From Planctomycetota bacterium (lineage in GTDB: Bacteria; Planctomycetota; Planctomycetia; Planctomycetales; Planctomycetaceae): a stretch of 25,239 nucleotides of DNA. The notes beneath the pieces are model-generated. The model was given only the letters and a program-made list of their open reading frames with translations. It made no database searches and had not been told where the DNA came from. Of the stretch, positions 13,067 through 24,112 are shown one piece after another. The DNA is taken from positions 1 to 25,239 of the forward strand of contig JBEDAZ010000544.1 of assembly GCA_041177585.1 (NCBI GenBank), written 5' to 3'. The position numbers were made by a program, and so were the translations under genes. Every line of letters begins with the position of its first letter. Position 1 is the stretch's first letter.

Positions 13067-13465
13067 ATGCGATTTGTCACGTTCATCATGCTGCCCATCT
13101 GGTGTGCTCTGGCTTTGCTGGGGCAGTCGGGGTTGCATGCGCTGGCGGATCAGCTTGGCATGTGCTGCCATGTTGGAACGTCGGATTCGGCGAGTACAGA
13201 TGCGAAGGACGATCATTCTGATTGTGTTTTTTGCCTGCGGGCTCGGGCGTCGGAGAACGCTGATGAGGCTCCGGGTCCGGCGAAGCATGATGCTTCGAAC
13301 TGTCGTCTGTGCGACTGGTTTCTCTGCTGGAATGTCCAGTCTCCGGCGGGTGTCTCAGTCCTGCAATTTTCGCTGTTGACCTTTCAGGACGTATGCATTG
13401 AATTGACGGCTGCATCCGGTCGTCCGATTACGGCAGTTTCTCGTGGGCCTCCCGCTGTGGTTTGA
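13067..13465 (+). CDS. DUF2946-like Cys/His-rich small protein with C-terminal RGPP motif (putative metal-sensing arrest/leader peptide), 132 aa
   Basis: N-terminal hydrophobic segment, CCH, HSDCVFC and HDASNCRLC motifs, and SRGPPAVV at the C-terminus (RGPP = 13442-13453). Confidence 0.8.
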   Translation: MRFVTFIMLPIWCALALLGQSGLHALADQLGMCCHVGTSDSASTDAKDDHSDCVFCLRARASENADEAPGPAKHDASNCRLCDWFLCWNVQSPAGVSVLQFSLLTFQDVCIELTAASGRPITAVSRGPPAVV

Positions 13466-13619
13466 AGGCCTGTTTTTGCGCGAATCGTGTTGACGTGTTG
13501 CAGATTTTTTGGCTGCGCGCGTGAGCAGTGCAATCGCGGTGTTTGAGCTGCCATGGCCTGTGAGAGGTGTGGCGGCTGACTGTCCTGCCTTCAGTATCTG
13601 CGTGGGATTAGGATCAGCG

Positions 13620-14981
13620 ATGTCTGTATCTGTTTCCGGTCAGCGAAGACCGGTTGTGCCCGTTTCGGGTGCTCTGGGGCAATCCGTCATTCTTCGAGCG
13701 ATACGTGCTGCGAACCGCATGGACGGAGTGTTGCGCGCGGATTTCTGTCCCTGGGCGAATCGTTGGGTGTACTGGATAAAGGATCCCTTCTGGTGTTTGT
13801 TGATGGCGGTGGGGTTATCAGCAGCCGTCGGTATTTTTGTGAACCCGATGGTGTTGCTGTTTTCTGTCGTCCTGAGTGTCTTGGGTGTCCTGGCAGCTCT
13901 GCTCCCGTGGCTGACGATGCGGGGTCTGGAGTGTTGTTTGAGTCTGGAGCAGAATCGCGGGCGGGTTGGTGAGGTTCTGGGAATCAGGCTGCGGATCCGA
14001 AATCGCAGACTCTGGCCTGCATGGGGGGTGGCATTGACGGGGGGCATTCCTGTTAGCGGCAGTGTGAGCGAGTGGGGGGGTACAGATGCTGCGGGAATCG
14101 CTTTGGCGAAGATCCCTGGTCGGAGCGAGATGGAGTTTGTCTGGCGGATGCGTCCATCAGTTCATGGAAGCTATCCCTCGGGCAATCCGGCGATAGAGAC
14201 GGGGTTTCCATTTGGAATTTTTCGTGCGCGGCGTTTCGTGGATGTGACGTGTCGGGCGATCGTCTGGCCGGCGACGGTTGCGATGAATGGCCTTCCGGAC
14301 TCGCCGGTTTTGAATGGTCAGGAGGACTCGATGTCGGATCGATCTCCTGGCGAGCTGGGTGACCTGCTGGGGACGCGGTTCTTTCGTTCCGGGGATTCGC
14401 TGCGCCGTGTGCACTGGGCGCAGACGGCGCGTCAGCAGCAGTTGGTGGTGAGTGAGCGGCAGTCAGTGGGTGGGAGTTTGGTGAGTGTGTTTGTGGACAG
14501 CCGGAAGGAGAGTTATGTGGCTTCCGTTGAGGGGGGCATTGGGAGCGGATTCTCATGGGAGCTGGCGATTCGAGTGGCAGCGAGTGTTTGTGAGTCGGTG
14601 TATCAGCAGCATGGGCGAGTGGAGTTGGAATTGTGTGGGCGGCGTTACGAGACAGGGGAATCGATTCAAGGTTTTCGTCAGTTGATGGATGCGTTGTCAA
14701 CAGCATCACCCGGTACCGGGGATGTGGGGTTTGGTGTGGCAGAACGACGCGGAATGAGGGGTGAGGTGTTGCTCACTATCAGTACTCCGGAGGGCATTCG
14801 GCGGGGTTTTGCGGAGACCGCGAGTCGGGGACGTGTAGCGGAACGGCGGATTTGTGTTTCGTCCGGGTCGGAGAATGCTGACAGGGATTTGATTCTGGCG
14901 GGTTGGAGGGTAATCAGGGACGGCAGGGAGTTAGGAGGGCAGTTACCGCGGCTTTGGAAGGAATTGTGCAATGTCCGCTGA
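13620..14981 (+). CDS. DUF58 domain protein (MoxR-associated) with N-terminal TM helices, ~453 aa
   Basis: TGFPFGIF, GDLLGTRFFRSGDSLRRVHWAQTARQQQLVVSERQ (DUF58 core), WELAIRVAASVC. ATG 13620 has AGGA upstream and is preferred to TTG 13509. Confidence 0.9.
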   Translation: MSVSVSGQRRPVVPVSGALGQSVILRAIRAANRMDGVLRADFCPWANRWVYWIKDPFWCLLMAVGLSAAVGIFVNPMVLLFSVVLSVLGVLAALLPWLTMRGLECCLSLEQNRGRVGEVLGIRLRIRNRRLWPAWGVALTGGIPVSGSVSEWGGTDAAGIALAKIPGRSEMEFVWRMRPSVHGSYPSGNPAIETGFPFGIFRARRFVDVTCRAIVWPATVAMNGLPDSPVLNGQEDSMSDRSPGELGDLLGTRFFRSGDSLRRVHWAQTARQQQLVVSERQSVGGSLVSVFVDSRKESYVASVEGGIGSGFSWELAIRVAASVCESVYQQHGRVELELCGRRYETGESIQGFRQLMDALSTASPGTGDVGFGVAERRGMRGEVLLTISTPEGIRRGFAETASRGRVAERRICVSSGSENADRDLILAGWRVIRDGRELGGQLPRLWKELCNVR

Positions 14982-17418
14982 GCAGCGTTTGACGGGGCGA
15001 TTGATTAGGGGGCGTTCCTCTGCAGCGGCTTGGGCGGGGGGGAGTTCGAGCGACCTTATTCCGCAGATCCTGACGGTGTTACTGGGGATACTTGGGGGTT
15101 TGATCTTTCTGCTGACGGACGCGGATGGTAATCGTGGAGAGGCAGAGGTCTGGTTGCAGTGGGGTCTTGAGTCTCTGGTCGTCGTAGGTGCTGCTTATGC
15201 AGTGCATCGGAATCGGGTTTGGTTTGAACAGCATCCGGTGCAAATGCCCGTGGTATTAGGTGTGTTGATTTTGAGTTTGTTGTGGGAGCCGTTGCAGAGG
15301 CTGTTGCTGGGGACGGGACGTCCCTTTGAGATGTTGGTGATGCACAGTCAGAAGAATGTGATGCTGGCGCTGGCTGCGACGGCGATGGCTGTGGGATTCA
15401 GGCGTTTGAGTGTGTTTATCGGTGTGGCGATTTGTATTTTTTGCTGCGCGATGACTCGGGATAATCGCGTGATCTGGTTTTCGGCCATGTATGGGGTTCT
15501 GTCGATCAGCTGGCTGATGGCGTGTTACTGGAGTGGTTTGCAGGGGCGCATGTTGCCTGGGCAGAGGACTCGTTTACCGTTGCGATGGATATTTGCAGCG
15601 CCGGCATTGGGACTCCTGACGGCAGCGGGATCCGCGGGAGGCGGCCGTGAGCTGATTTCTTCGGCGCGAGGATTTCTGCCGGGTTCCGGGGGTGACGGGG
15701 ATTACAGTGAGTTTTCGCGGGGTGGGGTGAATGACGGTGAGAGCCTTGTAGCGGGTGAGAATGACATTCGGAGTTTTGGTCCTCTGGAAGATGCGCCTTT
15801 TGCGGATTCAGAGAAGCCTTCGCTGTATGATGTGGTGAATGATCAGTTTGACGAGCCGGTACGGAGGAACCGTCAGTTTCAGCCGGCGATTGCATTGCCA
15901 CCGGAGATGATGGCGGAGGTGAAGGATCGTCTGAGTCGTGTGCAGCAGGCTGGCCGGGAGTTTTCGCTGGTGCGTCGTCGGTCTTCTGCGGAGCGCCGCC
16001 GTGCAAAGTCCATTTCGAGTGCTGCGATGTTTTACGTTGCCGGCCGGGCACCGCTGCATTTGCGAACGGAGGTTTATGATGTTTTTGATGGAGTGAACTG
16101 GCATCCGGTTGGCAGCCCGACTGATGGATTGCCTTTGCATCTGGTGGAGAGTGGTGGCCGGCCGTGGCTGCGATTGCCACAGGGCCCAAGGGGTCTCGAC
16201 TTGTTTACTCACACGGATCTTCACGTGGTTCGCCCTGTGAACCTGAAGTCACCTGTGATACCTGGTCCACCGGGGCTGCGTCAGTTACACATTGACCGGG
16301 TGGACCGTCCCGACATGTTTATGTGGCATGCACCAGGTGTTGTGCGTTTGACGGGGGATTCCATACCTGAGCTGGTGGCGATTCATTTGCAGTCTGATGT
16401 CATGGATCCTGCGCGATTGCGCGAGGGGCGACTGCCGATGAATTCGCAGGGCCGGGAGATGCTTGAGCAAACGCTGCCTGCAGGGGAAGAGTTGGCTGAG
16501 TTACGTCGATTGGCGGTGGAATGGACAGCGGAGACGCCACGAGGCATGGCCCAGGTTGATGAAATCTGCGATCACCTGCGGAGTGAGTTTGCTCTGATGC
16601 GCGGAATGCCGATTGATGAGCAGAGTGAGTCTCCGATCAGGGATTTTCTCCGCGTGCGGCGCGGTCCGGAGTATTTGTTTGCGTCAACTGCGGCGTTGAT
16701 GTTGCGGAGCCTTGGTTACGCAACGCGTCTGGTTTCTGGGTTTTACGTGCGTCCAGAGCGTTACGAGTCACAGCGTCGGCAAACACCGGTACTTGGCGAG
16801 GATGTGCATTTCTGGTGCGAGGTATTGGCGGGTCCGAGCACATGGGCGACGGTGGAAGCTTGTCCCGGTTACGAGGTGGAGGGACCTCCACCTGGGCTAT
16901 GGCAGCGTTTCTCCGTCGTAATGTGGGGTGTCATGAGTTCTGTGATTCGCAACTGGACATTGTGGAGTGTGATGTGTGTGGTGTTATGGGTGTTATTTTG
17001 GCAGAGGGCCTGGTGGATTGACGGGATTCGGACTGCAGTCTGGCGTCTGTTTCCCGCATCGACGGTTTGGGGCCGAGTGCGGCAAACGGTGCGGCTGTTG
17101 GAGGGAAGGCTGATTCTGGCTGGCTTGAAGCGACCTGCGCATATCACGCTGCGGCGGTGGCTGAATGGGCTGCCATTTCAGGAACAGGAGGCTGTGCGGC
17201 AGTTGGTGGCGCTGGCGGATGCAGCGGCATTTGGTGTGGGCGTCGAAGGGGACTACGTGGTGGCAGCCGGCGTGGGCGATATCCGGGTGAGTTGTGTCGA
17301 GCTGCAGCGTCAGCTGAATCTGAGGCGTTGCCGGGCGGCAGCGCGTGAGCGGCAAACGGCACTTCGATCCGGAGCTGAGAGGTCTTCGGGCGTATGGATT
17401 GGGAGGTCAGCGAAATGA
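14971..17418 (+). CDS. Transglutaminase-like domain membrane protein (TgpA/DUF3488-type architecture), catalytic Cys apparently absent, 815 aa
   Basis: N-terminal multi-TM region; LHLRTEVYDVFDGVNW; GPEYLFASTAALMLRSLGYATRLVSGF and HFWCEV, W..VEA.PG core; C-terminal TM and tail. Overlaps the DUF58 gene by 11 nt. Confidence 0.88.
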   Translation: MSAEQRLTGRLIRGRSSAAAWAGGSSSDLIPQILTVLLGILGGLIFLLTDADGNRGEAEVWLQWGLESLVVVGAAYAVHRNRVWFEQHPVQMPVVLGVLILSLLWEPLQRLLLGTGRPFEMLVMHSQKNVMLALAATAMAVGFRRLSVFIGVAICIFCCAMTRDNRVIWFSAMYGVLSISWLMACYWSGLQGRMLPGQRTRLPLRWIFAAPALGLLTAAGSAGGGRELISSARGFLPGSGGDGDYSEFSRGGVNDGESLVAGENDIRSFGPLEDAPFADSEKPSLYDVVNDQFDEPVRRNRQFQPAIALPPEMMAEVKDRLSRVQQAGREFSLVRRRSSAERRRAKSISSAAMFYVAGRAPLHLRTEVYDVFDGVNWHPVGSPTDGLPLHLVESGGRPWLRLPQGPRGLDLFTHTDLHVVRPVNLKSPVIPGPPGLRQLHIDRVDRPDMFMWHAPGVVRLTGDSIPELVAIHLQSDVMDPARLREGRLPMNSQGREMLEQTLPAGEELAELRRLAVEWTAETPRGMAQVDEICDHLRSEFALMRGMPIDEQSESPIRDFLRVRRGPEYLFASTAALMLRSLGYATRLVSGFYVRPERYESQRRQTPVLGEDVHFWCEVLAGPSTWATVEACPGYEVEGPPPGLWQRFSVVMWGVMSSVIRNWTLWSVMCVVLWVLFWQRAWWIDGIRTAVWRLFPASTVWGRVRQTVRLLEGRLILAGLKRPAHITLRRWLNGLPFQEQEAVRQLVALADAAAFGVGVEGDYVVAAGVGDIRVSCVELQRQLNLRRCRAAARERQTALRSGAERSSGVWIGRSAK

Positions 17419-18374
17419 TTGTGGCGGAGTCAGTGTGCTCTCTGGAGGGTGTGGATATAGCGGCCGTTGAGTGCCTGCGGAAGCGCCTGAATCTGGCGTT
17501 ACGGGGGAAGCCGGAGGTGGTGGAGTTTGTGATTCTTGGTCTTTTGGCAAACGGTCATTTGCTGCTTGAGGACAAGCCGGGGCTGGGCAAGACGACATTA
17601 GCGAAGGCTTTGGCGCACGCGATTGGCGGCCGATTCGCGCGTTGTCAGTGCACGCCGGACTTGCTGCCGGCGGATATCACGGGCTTCAGTTTATTCAATC
17701 AGAAGACTCAGGAGTTTGAGTTCCGGGAGGGTCCGGTCTTTGCGGATGTGTTGCTGGCGGACGAAATCAATCGTGCGACTCCGCGGACGCAGAGTGCTTT
17801 GCTGGAGGCGATGGCGGAGCGGCAGGTGACGGTGGATGCGCGGCGTTATCCGCTCAGTGCGCAGTTTCTGGTGATCGCGACTCAAAATCCCGTTGACCAG
17901 CATGGAACATGGCCTTTGCCAGAGGCGCAGTTGGATCGATTTTCGATGAGGTTGAGCATTGGATATCCGGCGGCGGAGGAGGAGTCGGAGATGCTGTTGC
18001 AGGCGACTCAGGGACAGTGCAGTTCAGTCGACGCGCAATCACTATTTGAGCCTGGGCAGCTTGCTCGGATGCAGTCTTCAGTAACAGGAGTTTCTGCGGC
18101 GGCATCTGTTAGAGATTACATGGTGCGTTTAGCTGGGGCCACGCGTCGCCACCCGGCGGTGCCATTGGGATTAAGTCCACGTGGACTACTCACCTGGCTG
18201 CGAGTTTCTCAGGCGCGGGCATGGGTTCAGGGGCGTAAGTTTGTATCGCCGGACGACATTCAGGACACGGCGGTTGCGGTGCTGAACGTTCGGCTGGGGG
18301 TGGGGTTTCAGGAGTGTCGGGGCGTGGTGGAGGAGATACTGAGTCAAACGCCGGTACCGGAGTATGATCGATGA
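17415..18374 (+). CDS. MoxR-family AAA+ ATPase, ~319 aa
   Basis: Walker A LLEDKPGLGKTT, QCTPDLLPADITG, Walker B LLADEINRATPRTQSALLEAMAE, IATQNP, LPEAQLDRF, GLSPRG. ATG 17415 overlaps the upstream TGA (ATGA) and has GGAGG upstream. Confidence 0.96.
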   Translation: MIVAESVCSLEGVDIAAVECLRKRLNLALRGKPEVVEFVILGLLANGHLLLEDKPGLGKTTLAKALAHAIGGRFARCQCTPDLLPADITGFSLFNQKTQEFEFREGPVFADVLLADEINRATPRTQSALLEAMAERQVTVDARRYPLSAQFLVIATQNPVDQHGTWPLPEAQLDRFSMRLSIGYPAAEEESEMLLQATQGQCSSVDAQSLFEPGQLARMQSSVTGVSAAASVRDYMVRLAGATRRHPAVPLGLSPRGLLTWLRVSQARAWVQGRKFVSPDDIQDTAVAVLNVRLGVGFQECRGVVEEILSQTPVPEYDR

Positions 18375-18916
18375 GTGAATCTGGCTGTCCTGAGCAGTTT
18401 TTCTGGATGCCTCGCGGGAGTGTTCTCAGCTGGGGCATTCTAATGGTTACTCTGGTGTCGGGCTGCGGGAGTGGTGAGCAGTCGATCAACGGAGCATCGG
18501 GACCGTCTGGAGATGGGTCCGTTGCGCAGCGGGTTGTCGACGAGCCAGGGAGTCATGATCACGTGCATGATCACGGGCATCACCGTCCGCGTCATAAGCC
18601 GCGGAGTTTTGATTTGCTTCCGGGTTCTTTGCTGAGGCGGTTACCTGAGGATGGGGACGTTTCGAGACTTAGCCGGCGCCGAATGCGTGAATTGCAGGAG
18701 ATTGTTGGGTGGATACCGGAGTTGGCTGCGGACAGCGAATTAAAGCGGTCGGGCTTTGAGCAGGCAGTGGCTTGTCAGGAGGATTTGCAGGTTGTTTTGT
18801 CGGCGATCGCTTCTGGACGGGATGTAGAGATGCGGTTGTGGTCGGAATCTGTGGAGCGACTGCGGGTACTGGCGGAGTCACTGAAGGGTGTGGAGTCTGG
18901 TGGGCAGCGGGAGTAA
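18371..18916 (+). CDS. His-rich putative lipoprotein, 181 aa (or ~169 aa from Met13)
   Basis: Lipobox LVSGC after a hydrophobic stretch; HDHVHDHGHHRPRHKP tract; helical C-terminal half; ATGA overlap with the MoxR stop. Confidence 0.78.
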   Translation: MSESGCPEQFFWMPRGSVLSWGILMVTLVSGCGSGEQSINGASGPSGDGSVAQRVVDEPGSHDHVHDHGHHRPRHKPRSFDLLPGSLLRRLPEDGDVSRLSRRRMRELQEIVGWIPELAADSELKRSGFEQAVACQEDLQVVLSAIASGRDVEMRLWSESVERLRVLAESLKGVESGGQRE

Positions 18917-18922
18917 GGGGCG

Positions 18923-20458
18923 ATGGTTTCAGAGATGCTGTTTGGGTTTGCGTTTCGGTTTTTGGTGAGTTTGGTGGAGGCTGCGCCATTTCTGTTAGCA
19001 GGATTGATGACGGCAGCCGTTTTGAGACGGTTTTTTGGTTTGGAGGGGACTCGTAGTCTTTTTGGCGAGGGGACTCGTTGGGGGTTACTGCGGGCATGGC
19101 TCATTGGAATGTTATTGCCTGTATGTTCGTTGGGTGTGATTCCTGTGATTTATGAGTTGCGACGGGCTGGTGTTCGTGGCGGGACGATCCTTGCGTTTGC
19201 GATGAGTGGACCACTGTTTAATCCGCTATCGCTGTTGTACGGGTTAACATTATCGGAGCCGGTAGCGATCGTTTCTTTTGCGATGTGTTCACTGTTGATC
19301 GTGACAGTAGCGGGCGTGGTTTGGGACTGGTGGTTTCCTGGAACTTCGTGCGAGTTAGTGAACGAGGAGGGGTATGGTGCTGGTTCACGGCGGATGCTGG
19401 CGGTGGCAATTGCGGCTGCGCGGGAGTCTGTTGGGCGATCACTCTGCTGGGTGGGACTGGGCTTGTTTGGCGTGGGTCTGGCGGGAGCGTTTTTGCCTCC
19501 GAACAGTCTGCAGCACACCTTCAACCATGACAATGCGTGGGCGCCGTTTTGGATGACAGGTCTGGCAATACCGGTGTATGCAACGCCGATGCTGGCAATG
19601 ACTCAACTGGGGATGATGTTTCAGCACGCAAATTCCATTGGAGCGGCATTTGTGCTGCTGATCCTGGGTGCGGGCATGAATCTGGGAGTGATGGGTTGGA
19701 CGATATCGGAGTATGGCTGGAGGCGTGGTGTGAGTTGGATGTTGCTGGTAACCGGGATTTCACTGACTCTGGCGGTTCTGGTGGACAAGCCATTGTTTCC
19801 GAAGGACATTGAGCCCGCCGATCATACTCATGCGTTTGACATTTATTGTCGGCCATTCTCCGGGGAGGCGGATGTTTTTTTGTCATTTCGAAGGCGATTG
19901 GAGCGGGACATTGCGCCGTGGCAATGGCGTCCACTGGGGTTACTGGGACTGATGGTCATCGCGGGCATGACGTTGAATCTGGCGGACCGGCGTGGGCGGC
20001 TGGAATTGTGGTTGCGGCGTCCGCAGGCGGCGGCTGGTCCGGGGCCGTATGACATCGAAATCCCCGGTCGAATTCTTGGGCTGATTTCCCTTGCAGGTCT
20101 GCTGGTGATGAGTTTGGCGGGTTGCTACGCCTGGTACCCGGCTCCGGCGGATTGTCTTGAGGCGATGACCGATGCGAGGATTGGGGCTTTGAGTGCGGCA
20201 TTGGCGCTGGATCATTCTGAGACGAAGTACTGGTCAGAACGATACGACGACTGGACGCGGAAGATGGAAGTAGGGGCGTGGCTGCGGCAGGGTTCACTTA
20301 GCGAGTATCATCGGTGGAAGTCCCGACTGGTGCGGGAGCAGCTGGAGATGCTTGAGCATGAGGTGGATGATGGGGATCGTGAGCGGGTACAGAAGCGAGT
20401 GACGCAGATTTCGACACTGCACCGGCGGATGAGCGAGGCTTATCGTGAGGAGTTATGA
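18923..20458 (+). CDS. DUF318/ArsP-type permease with C-terminal soluble extension, 511 aa
   Basis: EAAPFLLAGL, GMLLPVCSLGVIPV, GPLFNP, AIPVYATP, GAAFVLLILGAGMNL; DHTHAFD loop motif; 6 nt from the upstream stop. Confidence 0.85.
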   Translation: MVSEMLFGFAFRFLVSLVEAAPFLLAGLMTAAVLRRFFGLEGTRSLFGEGTRWGLLRAWLIGMLLPVCSLGVIPVIYELRRAGVRGGTILAFAMSGPLFNPLSLLYGLTLSEPVAIVSFAMCSLLIVTVAGVVWDWWFPGTSCELVNEEGYGAGSRRMLAVAIAAARESVGRSLCWVGLGLFGVGLAGAFLPPNSLQHTFNHDNAWAPFWMTGLAIPVYATPMLAMTQLGMMFQHANSIGAAFVLLILGAGMNLGVMGWTISEYGWRRGVSWMLLVTGISLTLAVLVDKPLFPKDIEPADHTHAFDIYCRPFSGEADVFLSFRRRLERDIAPWQWRPLGLLGLMVIAGMTLNLADRRGRLELWLRRPQAAAGPGPYDIEIPGRILGLISLAGLLVMSLAGCYAWYPAPADCLEAMTDARIGALSAALALDHSETKYWSERYDDWTRKMEVGAWLRQGSLSEYHRWKSRLVREQLEMLEHEVDDGDRERVQKRVTQISTLHRRMSEAYREEL

Positions 20459-20465
20459 GGAGGCC

Positions 20466-22532
20466 TTATTTTGTGGCGATTTCAGCGCGGAGTTGTTCGA
20501 GGTGTTCGGGATTTGAGCCGGGGTTGAAGTTGAACGAGGCTTCGCGGGCGAGGAGGGCAGCGTGGTTTTGCTGCAGTTTGAATCGGAGGGCTGGGTCGTT
20601 GGCGACGATGTAGATGCCGACGACGTGTATGGAATCTTCGATTTGGACGGCGTGATTTTCGAATCGGGCGTTTGTGTCGTGAACACCGTCAGCATCGATG
20701 CGAAAGACTGAGGCGTTGTTTTGGATCCATGCGGGAAGGGGAAAGGTCCAGCTGCTGCTCCGGGGTTCAAACCGAAAGACGTTGGATTGTGGATCTGGCT
20801 GATAGGCGAGGTCGTGTACCGTGAGGATTGCAGCGTGGGGAGCAGCGAGGACGCTGGTTTCCCAATCGGGCTGTCCGGACTGCTGTCGGAGTTGGCTGAA
20901 GGCGAACTGATCTGCTTCGAGGAGCAGGTGATCGAGGAGGCGGATTTCGCGATTGACACGCGTGATAGGGTCAATGAGATCGGGGAATTTGAGGAGTGCG
21001 GGGATGCTGAGGTTGAACCAATAGAGCGAGGTGATTCGGGAGGCGAGTGCGTGCCATGCCTGAGCGCGGAGTTCATCGGGCGTGGGTGATCCGCGGCGGG
21101 GGCTGAGGAAGCCGCCCCAGCCATCATGAGCGCCCTGTGACCAGTAGGCGATCGCTCTGGGGCGATTGAGTTCTCTGAGGCTGCGTGTCATTTCGCTGAT
21201 GGTTTCGAGGGGGGCGCCCCAGCGAATGGATTTGCCATTCCAGCGGTTGTAGCGGGACCACGAATCGGCGGCGGGTGCGATTACGCGATAGGCATCATAG
21301 TGAGGGTGATCGGAGAGTCCGGCGTAAAATCGCCAGGTTCGTTCTTCGCTGAGTGTGACGGAGGTGTGGAGGCGGCTCTTGAAGTAGGGTGCGAGGAGGT
21401 TGCGGACTTCCTGCGGTGGGACAGGGCGGCCGCCGCCATACTGGGGTTCGCCGATGAATTCAACGGCGTGGATCTGAGGGAGAAGTTCGTCGCTGTCGTA
21501 GCGTTTTAGATCTGCGAGTCGGTTGAAGCGTTTGAAAGGGTAGCGATTGAAGAGTTCGGGGTTGTTTGTGTAGCCACCAACCTCTTCGATTTGTCCGGCA
21601 TTGATATGCATGCGGGAGAGCGTTTTCAGGTAGTTTTCGATAGTCAGGCTATTTCGTCCGTTGATATCAGACGCGATCCAGCCACCGCTGATATCAAACT
21701 GTTCGGGGCGGATTTTGAGGCTGGCCCAGAGGGAGTTTTGCGGGGAGTTGCGATCGGTGGTTTTGAGTAGAACTTCGACGGCTGCGTGTGAGCGAGGGAG
21801 GGGCTGGAGTGCAGTGGTGAAGCAGGCGGTGGACTGGGCTTTGATGCGGCGGTCGGCAGGAAAGCAGGTGAGTTGGCTGGCGTCAATCCTGTGCTGGGCG
21901 GAGAGGACGCGGGCATTGCCGCCAGGCTGTGGGAGCCAGAGATTGAGTCCGGCGATTTCGAGATCTGCGGTGCCATTATTGCGGATATGTACGACGACGC
22001 GATTGGCGTTTACGGCGGTGGTTTGGAGGTTACCGGATGGTTCAGCGGCGAGGAATGTTACGGCCGAGAGCCATGCGGAGGGGTTGGGGAGTGTAAAGGG
22101 TATTTGAGGCGCATTCTGGCCGGGCTGAAGGGTATGACTGGTATCGGCGCTCCAGTTACGAGCCTGTCCGTTGAAGGGGATGACGACAAGAGCTTGCGGG
22201 GGTACTTGGGTGGAGTCGTCTTCCCAGAGGACGGGCGTTTCATGCCATGCCCATTCATTTGCCGTGAGGAGTTGTTCCGGAGTTTGGCCATCGAAGAGCC
22301 AGTTATCGCTGCGATTGATGGCGATGTTCTTATTGGAGGGATTGTGGAGGAAGAGTTCGACGCGGGCGGCGAGTTCCGGGGACGGTGGGCGGCGCCACTG
22401 CATAACGGAGGAGACCTGATGAGGAGTGACTGTGACGCCAACGATCTGCTGTGCGCGGGCGTCTGCAGGAGTGGCGATTGAGAGCGAGGCGGTGGTGAGG
22501 AGGAGGAGAAGGCGTCGGGAGGTGTTGGTCAT
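20466..22532 (-). CDS. Large secreted hypothetical protein (Ig-like N-terminal half, possible glycoside-hydrolase-like TIM barrel), ~688 aa
   Basis: Signal peptide MTNTSRRLLLLLTTASLSIATPADARA from ATG 22532, which overlaps the upstream TGA (ATGA). Beta-rich VVVHIRNNGTADLEI; EFIGEPQY, HYDAY, PTPDELRAQAWHALASRITSLYWF. Confidence 0.75.
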   Translation of the reverse strand: MTNTSRRLLLLLTTASLSIATPADARAQQIVGVTVTPHQVSSVMQWRRPPSPELAARVELFLHNPSNKNIAINRSDNWLFDGQTPEQLLTANEWAWHETPVLWEDDSTQVPPQALVVIPFNGQARNWSADTSHTLQPGQNAPQIPFTLPNPSAWLSAVTFLAAEPSGNLQTTAVNANRVVVHIRNNGTADLEIAGLNLWLPQPGGNARVLSAQHRIDASQLTCFPADRRIKAQSTACFTTALQPLPRSHAAVEVLLKTTDRNSPQNSLWASLKIRPEQFDISGGWIASDINGRNSLTIENYLKTLSRMHINAGQIEEVGGYTNNPELFNRYPFKRFNRLADLKRYDSDELLPQIHAVEFIGEPQYGGGRPVPPQEVRNLLAPYFKSRLHTSVTLSEERTWRFYAGLSDHPHYDAYRVIAPAADSWSRYNRWNGKSIRWGAPLETISEMTRSLRELNRPRAIAYWSQGAHDGWGGFLSPRRGSPTPDELRAQAWHALASRITSLYWFNLSIPALLKFPDLIDPITRVNREIRLLDHLLLEADQFAFSQLRQQSGQPDWETSVLAAPHAAILTVHDLAYQPDPQSNVFRFEPRSSSWTFPLPAWIQNNASVFRIDADGVHDTNARFENHAVQIEDSIHVVGIYIVANDPALRFKLQQNHAALLAREASFNFNPGSNPEHLEQLRAEIATK

Positions 22533-24112
22533 GGTTGGGAATTTCTGAGGAGTGGTCGAACGATTTGGCGGATTTCGAGGGGCAGCTGGAAGAGGGGGCG
22601 GGGAGTTGGCCGGGGCGCTTTCAGGACATTGACGGCGGCGACGAGGCATTGCAGGGGGACATGCAGGTCATCGCAGGGTTGCGGGATTTGGTTCCATGCG
22701 CTGAGCCAGGTATTGAGTTGGGAATTTGAAAAGTCGCCCTGATCGAGCACGGCGATGGACTGTGTCAATTCGCGGGCTAATTGTTCGGTTGCATGAGCGT
22801 GGACGCAGGTGATGTGGAGTTCTGCGACACAGTCCCGCCATTCTGCGGGGCCGCGTGCGAGGATGGATGCGATTAAGTTGCGATGGTAGTTGTTGGGAAC
22901 GTATTCGGCTATGCAATCCTGTGGTGGATCCGGCTGATGGGGCATGGTTTGGTGGAACCATGCTTTGAGAAAGCGGGTGGTTTTCCGAAACGGCTGAATG
23001 AATCGGTTTTGCAGGTTAAGGCAGAGCCGCATCAGGGGGTCTGCAAGTTCATAGTAGGATTCCTTCCCGCATTGTTCGCTGCGGACGAGTTGTTTGGATT
23101 TGAGATTTCCGAGTTGTTTGGAGCAATTGCCGACGGGGATAAATGTTTCTTCGGCGACTTCTTTCACGGTGATTGCTCCGGGGGCTCTGCAGAGCGTCTG
23201 GATCAGTTGTCTTTGTTGATTGGGAAGCGAGCGGATTTGTTCCTGATAGCGGGGCAGGATTGATTCTGCGAGCCGTTCGAGGGCAGTGGATGTATCGTCG
23301 AGAAGTTCCGGTGTGAGGAATTCAGCGAGCGTTGTGAGGACACGCGGATTGCCTGCTGCGAGGTGATGGAGGGCGTTAATGCGGTATGTGGCCAACGGGG
23401 AGTCAAGAAACTGGACGAGTTCGTCGTTTTTCTGTGCGGTGGCGATTTTTCGAAGGAGGAGTGCGGTTTCATTTTGGCTGAGTATGGCAAGGTGCTTGAT
23501 ATCGAAGAAACCGAAGAAGGGTTGATTGCGATTTGAGACGTCGTTGAAGAGTTGTGTGGCTGTGGTGAGAGTGGCGATGCGGCGGGTTTCCTGGAGGAAT
23601 GCGCGAAGTTTTTTCTGTCCGGAATCACCGATTCCCTGAAGCGTTTGATCGAGGTTTTCTGTGACGAGCAGCAGGTGTCGATTGTGGAGGTGTTGCAGTG
23701 TGCGGTGGAGGATTGCGAGGGCGGCATCGTCATGAGGCAGGCCGCGGAATTCCGCTTTGAAGTCTCGGGGAAATTCGCTGGGGTATGAGTCGGCGAGATC
23801 CTGAGCGATGGCGATGGCGAGATGTATGAGTCCGGAGAATGCGTCTTCTTCACCGAGCCATGCGATGCGCATGGAATCCGCGAGGTGGGTGTTTTGTTTC
23901 AGCCTTGCGACAGCAAGGGCGGCGAGGTGAGTTTTACCGATCCCTGGGGCACCGACGAGGAGGATGTGGTGCTTGTTATTGGAAGACATGCTGATGGCGA
24001 GGCGGTCGAGGATTTGCTGGAGCAGTCGTTCGCGTTGAACGAAGATCTGATTCAGCAGATCCGGCGGCATATTGGCGGGAGTATTTGGGTGGATACGGGC
24101 GATGTGGTTCAT
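22529..24112 (-). CDS. STAND-like P-loop ATPase with winged helix-turn-helix, ~527 aa
   Basis: Walker A ILLVGAPGIGKT, Walker B LLLVTENLD, LAAGNPRVL (GxP), wHTH ITVKEVAEETFIPVGNCSKQLGNLKSKQLV...YYELADPL. Start ATG 24112 overlaps the upstream TGA (ATGA). Confidence 0.85.
   Translation of the reverse strand: MNHIARIHPNTPANMPPDLLNQIFVQRERLLQQILDRLAISMSSNNKHHILLVGAPGIGKTHLAALAVARLKQNTHLADSMRIAWLGEEDAFSGLIHLAIAIAQDLADSYPSEFPRDFKAEFRGLPHDDAALAILHRTLQHLHNRHLLLVTENLDQTLQGIGDSGQKKLRAFLQETRRIATLTTATQLFNDVSNRNQPFFGFFDIKHLAILSQNETALLLRKIATAQKNDELVQFLDSPLATYRINALHHLAAGNPRVLTTLAEFLTPELLDDTSTALERLAESILPRYQEQIRSLPNQQRQLIQTLCRAPGAITVKEVAEETFIPVGNCSKQLGNLKSKQLVRSEQCGKESYYELADPLMRLCLNLQNRFIQPFRKTTRFLKAWFHQTMPHQPDPPQDCIAEYVPNNYHRNLIASILARGPAEWRDCVAELHITCVHAHATEQLARELTQSIAVLDQGDFSNSQLNTWLSAWNQIPQPCDDLHVPLQCLVAAVNVLKAPRPTPRPLFQLPLEIRQIVRPLLRNSQP

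Follow-up and report, generated by a model that had tools for sequence, protein, structure and literature searches.

What does a triad of MoxR, DUF58 and transglutaminase-like (TGL) proteins do when it is encoded together with metal-handling genes? The question is raised by a stretch of planctomycete DNA of 25,239 nt, analysed as a whole and called the window here, in which five plus-strand genes follow one another in the order DUF58, TGL, MoxR, His-rich lipoprotein and DUF318/ArsP permease (13620-20458). A preliminary description had taken these genes for a translationally coupled operon that joins the triad to metal handling, under the control of an upstream leader peptide ending in RGPP. 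We conclude that the five genes very probably form one functional unit, co-inherited within the class Planctomycetia and comprising a metal transport half and a MoxR half. As to its function, we lean towards a zinc transport unit serviced by MoxR, the metal, the direction of transport and the role of MoxR being the parts that we infer.

Gene order and linkage across Planctomycetia

A permease-based search for relatives retrieved 74 neighbourhoods, which together with the window gave 75 loci, and the window proteins were placed in them by tblastn. Of the 75 permease loci, 63, spread over at least nine families of the class, had DUF58, TGL, MoxR and permease genes in this order and on the same strand. 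Since this survey was anchored on the permease, a reciprocal one was anchored on a profile of the TGL protein. Among 201 genomes the TGL profile matched 81 and the permease 80; both were found in 80 genomes, the TGL clade only in one, the permease only in none and neither in 120. The long form of the permease was not found outside the class, the approximately 283 genomes of other classes of the phylum giving one weak match, to the core only. The linkage is far beyond chance. The preliminary description had expected both lipoprotein and permease to accompany the triad; the permease does so almost perfectly and is usually adjacent, whereas the lipoprotein is an optional member, with a homologue between MoxR and the permease in about 44 of the 75 loci.

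Linkage was also seen in disturbed clusters. In Thalassoglobus the TGL gene was a remnant, yet MoxR, lipoprotein and permease genes remained together. MoxR still adjoined the permease in three loci (L063, L078 and L081), despite DUF58 and TGL genes that had moved or decayed, and likewise in L060; extra genes were inserted within the cluster in L083, L089 and L094. The spread over families and the survival of linkage through these rearrangements argue for functional coupling despite the relatedness of the genomes. Carriers of the cluster included the cultured Gimesia, Maioricimonas and Thalassoglobus.

The window comes from an incomplete assembly (G000; 747 contigs, 73% complete). Its proteins included DUF1501 neighbours in a Pfam scan, and the closest relatives of its permease are named Planctomycetaceae. 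The junctions of the five genes were inspected base by base. The DUF58 gene (13620-14981, 453 aa, stop codon at 14979-14981) starts with an ATG preceded by AGGA; an alternative TTG start at 13509 is less likely. The TGL gene (14971-17418), encoding a TgpA-like polytopic membrane protein of 815 aa, starts inside the DUF58 gene with the ATG at 14971, giving an 11-nt overlap. It is joined to the gene of a MoxR-type AAA+ ATPase (17415-18374, 319 aa) by an ATGA at 17415, with GGAGG 9 nt upstream and an alternative MoxR ATG at 17394. A second ATGA, at 18371 and with GGAG upstream, leads into the lipoprotein gene (18371-18916, 181 aa), and a 6-nt gap separates its TAA from the ATG (18923) of the permease gene (18923-20458, 511 aa, extended DUF318/ArsP type). 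Gene order and all four junctions were therefore as the preliminary description had given them. The 11-nt overlap of DUF58 and TGL genes recurred in 29 of the 63 ordered loci, and a 4-nt or 1-nt overlap of TGL and MoxR genes in 18 of them. A promoter scan yielded zero promoter-like sites, and terminator-like sites were at chance level (10 found, 9.4 expected).

The end of a convergent gene lies 7 nt beyond the permease stop. This gene (20466-22649, minus strand) encodes a protein of 727 aa with a signal-like start and no Pfam family; its place downstream of the permease is kept only in the nearest relative, L039 (67% identity). The window as a whole (1-25239) showed an extreme strand asymmetry, its GC skew being +0.22 to +0.42 per 1-kb window regardless of the coding strand and +0.325 overall. 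Values for the nearest relatives were 0.18, 0.24 and, on the reversed strand, -0.13, and those for other members of the class were near zero.

Two further gene types were seen around the cluster in other genomes. In some lineages that lack the lipoprotein, the permease gene is followed on the same strand by the gene of an SPFH/Band 7 membrane protein of about 600 aa (L050:11960-13789, L052:242-2041, L109:12791-14629, L116 and L117); it was considered as a further core part and rejected, being present in five loci only. Genes with a prepilin-peptidase N-terminal domain (A24_N_bact) recurred beside or inside the cluster in several genera (L059:8051-9118, L063:6482-8113, L089:6885-7982, L094 and L079).

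The predicted proteins and the upstream leader

The TGL protein was matched by Transglut_core (PF01841) at residues 514-629 (E = 4.5e-11). Its family profile matched the structure of TgpA of Pseudomonas aeruginosa (6g49, E = 6.7e-16); phmmer with the single sequence gave zero matches in PDB, so that only the family profile reached TgpA. The catalytic triad (16669-16857, plus strand, as are all features of the five proteins below) was replaced, with Glu567 (16669-16671) for Cys, His613 (16807-16809) and Glu629 (16855-16857) for Asp. In a profile alignment the Asp of the family, which is Glu567 in the window, was aligned with the catalytic Cys of both TgpA and human TG2. That position was occupied by Asp in 41 of 48 orthologues, by Glu in 4, by other residues in 3 and by Cys in none; the triad His was kept in all 48, and the third position was Glu in 44 and Asp in 4. 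All 12 paralogous TGL domains in four of the same genomes retained the Cys. Judged from these alignments, the protein is a conserved pseudoenzyme, predicted to be catalytically dead. Because the substituted triad is itself conserved and the paralogues keep their Cys, the loss of Cys is read as a conserved replacement rather than decay, the acid-His-acid set apparently being under selection. Of the two terms used in the preliminary description, membrane scaffold is apt and transglutaminase, in the sense of an enzyme, is not, the catalytic Cys being absent from all 48 orthologues.

An AlphaFold2 (AF2) model of the TGL protein (pLDDT 81) consisted of 7 N-terminal helices, a beta domain (residues 354-478), the TGL core (480-630), a membrane helical hairpin (643-677) and a helical C-terminal domain. 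A positively charged N-terminus together with seven helices would put the large domain in the periplasm and the C-terminal domain in the cytoplasm; the corresponding domain of TgpA has been described as periplasmic (PMC3507681). An invariant Gly/Asp-rich stretch, SGG...G..DG (S239 G240 G241 ... G252 .. D255 G256; residues 239-256, approximately 15685-15738), was modelled as a low-confidence loop just past the N-terminal membrane helices, although it is strongly conserved.

The MoxR protein matched AAA_3 (PF07726) over the full profile (1-131 of 131, E = 4.6e-61) and AAA_lid_2 (PF17863, E = 8.9e-17), and gave weak matches to the BchD/ChlD and cobaltochelatase models of NCBIfam. Walker A (GxGKT) and Walker B (DEINR) motifs were intact in all 70 cluster MoxR proteins, that of the window included, and the protein looks like an active ATPase. 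The DUF58 assignment was borderline for the window protein (PF01882, 24.2 bits vs a cut-off of 23.4), and 38 of 39 orthologues matched the family (best E = 1e-13). The window protein has an N-terminal pair of membrane helices and the DUF58 signature, R..GD..R..HW..TAR, which is conserved. The DxSxS motif of a metal ion-dependent adhesion site (MIDAS) was not conserved, a single Asp being kept there among 39-64 orthologues, and no vWA match was found in Pfam. The family assignments of the preliminary description thus stood, those to MoxR, Transglut_core and ArsP_1/DUF318 with Pfam and NCBIfam alike.

The core of the permease (residues 15-287) matched ArsP_1 (PF03773) with 59.9 bits (cut-off 32.3, E = 3e-16, profile positions 11-291 of 294). 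Its scores were below the NCBIfam equivalog cut-offs for SO_0444 (69.7 vs 300) and SaoE (44.2 vs 325), only residues 15-135 being aligned. The first re-entrant loop keeps P-x-C-S-x-G-x-x-P, within a conserved core motif G-M-L-L-P-x-C-S-L-G-x-x-P whose Cys68 (19124-19126) was 97% conserved. In the second repeat, where we presume a Cys motif in DUF318 permeases, there is no Cys (P.YATP), and His235 is conserved. Beyond the core, the protein extends for about 220 aa at its C-terminus; this part holds a nearly invariant HTHAFD loop (residues 301-306, 19823-19840), two additional membrane helices and a four-helix bundle (residues 405-511, 20135-20455; helices 408-427, 431-456, 461-483 and 486-510) in the AF2 model (pLDDT 88.9, pTM 0.87). 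No Pfam family matched residues 290-511 even at E ≤ 10. The model's fold relatives in AlphaFold DB were DUF318 permeases, with HMA or DUF1980 fusions in some; Foldseek against PDB returned no solved structure at E ≤ 0.001. The loop before the last membrane helix (residues 355-381) has a net positive charge and, by the positive-inside rule, would lie in the cytoplasm, with the bundle in the periplasm.

The lipoprotein has no Pfam family. Its lipobox Cys32 (18464-18466) was invariant in an alignment of 40 orthologues, in which two motifs were conserved: H-x-x-P-x-H-K-P (residues 70-77, 18578-18601) and W-I-P-E-L-A-A-D-S-E-L (residues 114-124, 18710-18742), the latter with the family form W-[LI]-P-E-L-A-A-D-S-[DE]-L (WLPELAADS). 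Residues H70, P73, H75, P77, W114, P116, E117 and A119 were at least 90% conserved, and the His/Asp tracts were of very variable length. In four loci a different, non-homologous His-rich lipoprotein occupied the same slot. This substitute (L107-L110, e.g. L109:8889-9494) is 200-228 aa long, has no Pfam family, carries the motifs HGG..IGH and HY.AE, and sits between MoxR and a more distant paralogue of the permease.

When the permease and the mature lipoprotein were modelled as a complex, the ipSAE score was 0.67 in all three runs, the best control reaching 0.00. This mark is reached by 58 of the 80 solved complexes and by 2 of the 110 mismatched pairs in the calibration, which is only approximate with custom alignments. 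The runs shared at least 33% of their contacts, and the pLDDT of the partner was at least 67. In the predicted interface, lipoprotein residues 116-133, in the W-I-P-E-L-A-A-D-S-E-L helix, faced bundle residues 460-469 and 499-510, so that the interface falls on the most conserved motif of the lipoprotein. The lipoprotein is thus predicted to dock on the four-helix bundle of the permease, which would place the bundle in the periplasm, in line with the positive loop at 355-381. A similar W-x-P motif and an LAGC resembling a lipobox had prompted the idea that lipoprotein and bundle are homologous, which was rejected (hhalign probability 1.5%).

Upstream of the cluster an open reading frame (13067-13465, plus strand) encodes a leader of 132 aa with a signal-like N-terminus, a CCH motif, two CxxC motifs and the C-terminus SRGPPAVV; 154 nt separate its end from the start of DUF58. 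All ten leader homologues (10/10) ended in [S/T]RGPP plus 2-6 residues and shared an invariant HD..NC[RH]LC motif, and many had a His-rich middle. No Pfam family, DUF2946 included, matched the leader even at E ≤ 10. Thus, a Cys/His leader ending in RGPP does head the operon, as the preliminary description had it, with the restriction that, apart from L070, the family was found in this genus only. At that locus (genome G083) two copies of the RGPP leader were found, one upstream of the cluster and the second about 7 kb further, on the far side of the DUF58 start. A palindrome, TATACTnAAGTATA, preceded the DUF58 start by 26-52 nt in two lineages that are distant from each other (L050, at 5804, and L097, at 4970) and was present nowhere else in about 1.06 Mb of retrieved loci. 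As it occurs at these two loci only, is unique in the 7.6-Mb genome G029 and is at control level in G163, it yielded no evidence of a regulon.

Metal, direction of transport and rival explanations

The neighbours of the cluster point to zinc. COG0523 genes near clusters scored as ZigA equivalogs (605.2, 604.4 and 592.3 bits; cut-off 600). ZigA was present in 53 of the 201 genomes, and the permease in 46 of these 53 as compared with 34 of the 148 ZigA-negative ones. In 15 of the 46 genomes with both, from six families, the ZigA gene lay within 10 kb of the permease; by a rough estimate (about 1.3 ZigA genes per 6.5-Mb genome), some 0.2 genomes would be expected by chance. Its position varied: it preceded the cluster, followed it directly or stood between the TGL and MoxR genes. 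A rearranged locus (L083) carried a ZIP transporter gene and two Fur-family genes, a Fur-family gene directly followed the permease in L060, L066 and L067, and a weak ZrgA-like match stood beside ZigA in L076, with a homologue in L060. Conserved His and Cys positions occur in both the permease (C68, H235 and HTHAFD) and the lipoprotein (H70 and H75). The link to metals drawn in the preliminary description is borne out by the ZigA, ZIP and Fur-family neighbours, by these conserved motifs and by the HMA-fused relatives of the permease. ZigA has been described as a zinc-scarcity gene of other bacteria. On the strength of these neighbours, zinc is the most likely metal and a role under scarcity the most likely one.

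Pairs of a MoxR-clade ATPase and a vWA-like partner are known from several metal-insertion systems (chelatases, NorQD and CoxDE), and a metal role is thus natural for the trio. In the zinc unit that we favour, a secondary permease of the DUF318/ArsP type would have acquired two further helices and, on the periplasmic side, a four-helix bundle. The lipoprotein, in the many lineages that have it, would dock on this bundle through WLPELAADS and collect metal, present it by means of H-x-x-P-x-H-K-P and its His tracts, and hand it to the permease. The TgpA-like protein with its acid-His-acid set may act as a non-catalytic transmembrane scaffold, through which, and through DUF58 as an adaptor, a cytoplasmic MoxR hexamer would assemble, gate or reset the step by which metal passes to the permease in the periplasm. 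The unit would serve zinc acquisition or trafficking when the metal is scarce, and in this genus the arrest-type Cys/His leader may tune its expression to periplasmic metal. A bolder form of this scheme is conceivable, though we would not expect it to hold: the trio of MoxR, DUF58 and dead TgpA would be an ATP-driven transmembrane force transducer, passing the energy of hydrolysis via DUF58 and the scaffold to the periplasmic domain, where the acid-His-acid site and the Gly/Asp loop would strip zinc or transfer it between lipoprotein and bundle. If true, metal uptake would be coupled to energy in a novel way, and a trio present in both bacteria and archaea would have its first defined client.

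Several observations weigh against a zinc acquisition unit of five parts. The surveyed genomes are related, so that the counts overstate independence. The characterised members of the DUF318 family, such as ArsP, export metals or metalloids, so that import is not the default expectation for it. The lipoprotein is an optional part, not essential to the core mechanism, because about 20 of the 75 loci have no lipoprotein at all; MoxR there abuts the permease. The Fur-family neighbours scored weakly and about equally with Fur, PerR and Zur models, and scans of 64 regions upstream of DUF58 for AT-rich palindromes and enriched 7-mers revealed no operator in common. ZigA was not adjacent in the window or its nearest relatives, nor was it found in G000, which is only 73% complete. 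The leader resembles the copper-sensing CruR and CutF peptides and not a zinc sensor, and a DUF318 gene of Shewanella confers zinc resistance and is needed under zinc stress (10.1101/072470).

The resemblance of the leader suggests copper as the metal of the same architecture, in supply or protection, with a nascent leader that would sense copper via CxxC and stall at RGPP. CruR (Bordetella pertussis Bp2923, a DUF2946 protein) senses copper through CXXC and RAPP-type arrest, heads copper operons and has a few homologues in Planctomycetes (PMC9426467). With CruR and with CutF of Rhodobacter capsulatus the leader shares an export signal or signal-like N-terminus, CxxC, a terminal RGPP near the stop and a long spacer before the operon. 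It differs in giving no DUF2946 match even at the permissive threshold above, in having two CxxC motifs plus CCH and His tracts, and in preceding an operon that encodes neither a TonB-dependent transporter nor a multicopper oxidase. MerC genes near two loci, and the name of the nearest NCBIfam model to the permease (SO_0444, a Cu/Zn efflux transporter), would also suit copper. Against this, the leader is found only in this genus and L070, and the long His tracts in the middle of many leaders fit zinc or nickel equally well. The annotated flanks held no CopA, multicopper oxidase, PCuAC or Sco; ZigA, ZIP and the weak ZrgA-like match were present instead. Copper is thus a live rival, if a rather unlikely one. 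Efflux or detoxification, in which the permease would export excess metal and the lipoprotein receive or buffer periplasmic metal, is considered quite unlikely. His-rich periplasmic proteins can serve as metal sinks, and both of the closest NCBIfam models (SO_0444 and SaoE) are efflux transporters, but the scores lie far under their equivalog cut-offs and only the N-terminal third aligns. The requirement for the Shewanella gene under zinc stress is in keeping with efflux (10.1101/072470). The replacement of the presumed second Cys-bearing repeat by P.YATP speaks against it, as do the neighbours, which are metal-scarcity genes (ZigA, ZIP and the Fur family) and not efflux regulators or RND or CDF pumps.

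It has also been proposed that MoxR-vWA-YebA/TgpA trios, which are widespread, degrade membrane-proximal proteins (PMC3495828), and TgpA is essential in Pseudomonas aeruginosa without a linked permease (PMC3507681). The trio here might then be a general machine for quality control or degradation of membrane proteins, and the permease a mere co-regulated neighbour or a substrate. We regard this as very unlikely. The catalytic Cys was found in none of the 48 clade members and is kept in paralogues of the same genomes, which makes a peptidase role improbable, and since the clade lacks the Cys, the protease model of Zhang and Aravind (PMC3495828) is not applicable to it. That permease and clade match one to one across genomes speaks for a dedicated partnership, as does the persistence of MoxR beside the permease through rearrangements. 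A zinc transport unit with MoxR in its service remains the reading that we prefer.

Relation to known systems

The trio of MoxR, vWA/DUF58 and YebA/TgpA-like proteins was described by Zhang and Aravind in 2012 (PMC3495828), and the closest known system is the PA2875-PA2874-tgpA (PA2873) operon of P. aeruginosa. The three genes of that operon were shown to be co-transcribed, and TgpA, with an intact triad, had transglutaminase activity in vitro (PMC3507681). Both operons encode the same three families, with a polytopic TGL protein whose large domain lies between membrane segments. They differ in that the order here is DUF58, TGL and MoxR, not MoxR first; in that the planctomycete clade has Asp or Glu at the Cys position throughout (three of the 48 orthologues having other residues), where TgpA keeps its triad; and in that a permease and a lipoprotein, both absent from the Pseudomonas operon, are linked to this clade.

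The permease matches the DUF318/ArsP_1 family (PF03773; ArsP, SO_0444, SaoE and YraQ/UPF0718) in a core of about 290 residues, but adds its C-terminus and has lost the second Cys motif. Its outline, with two membrane helices and then a soluble domain after the core, is similar to that of DUF318 proteins paired or fused with DUF1980/TIGR03943. A DUF1980-fused permease ranked 7 among the fold matches, its alignment spanning core residues 7-317 only; no DUF1980 match was found in residues 290-511 (Pfam, E ≤ 10), and no TIGR03943 match in the whole protein (NCBIfam). The AAA+/vWA pairs of metal insertion (Mg-chelatase BchI/BchD, CobST, NorQ/NorD and CoxD/CoxE) likewise combine a MoxR-clade ATPase with a vWA-like partner in a metal context. 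Unlike them, the DUF58 protein here has no conserved MIDAS, and instead of a soluble metalloenzyme or a tetrapyrrole the partners are a transporter and a membrane scaffold. Our literature search found no paper linking MoxR or DUF58 with zinc, Zur, ZigA or DUF318, none describing the unit, and nothing on zinc acquisition by planctomycetes. The protein families as such are established; what appears new is a dedicated clade of pseudo-TGL proteins, the permease with its extension, the family of the lipoprotein and the partnership among them.

The MoxR-DUF58-TgpA trio is common in bacteria and archaea, essential in P. aeruginosa and poorly understood. A version with a dead TGL protein that is strictly co-inherited with one transporter provides a testable working partner for it, in culturable organisms. 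The unit would point to a route of zinc acquisition in planctomycetes, and it brings a new architecture to the poorly characterised DUF318 transporters.

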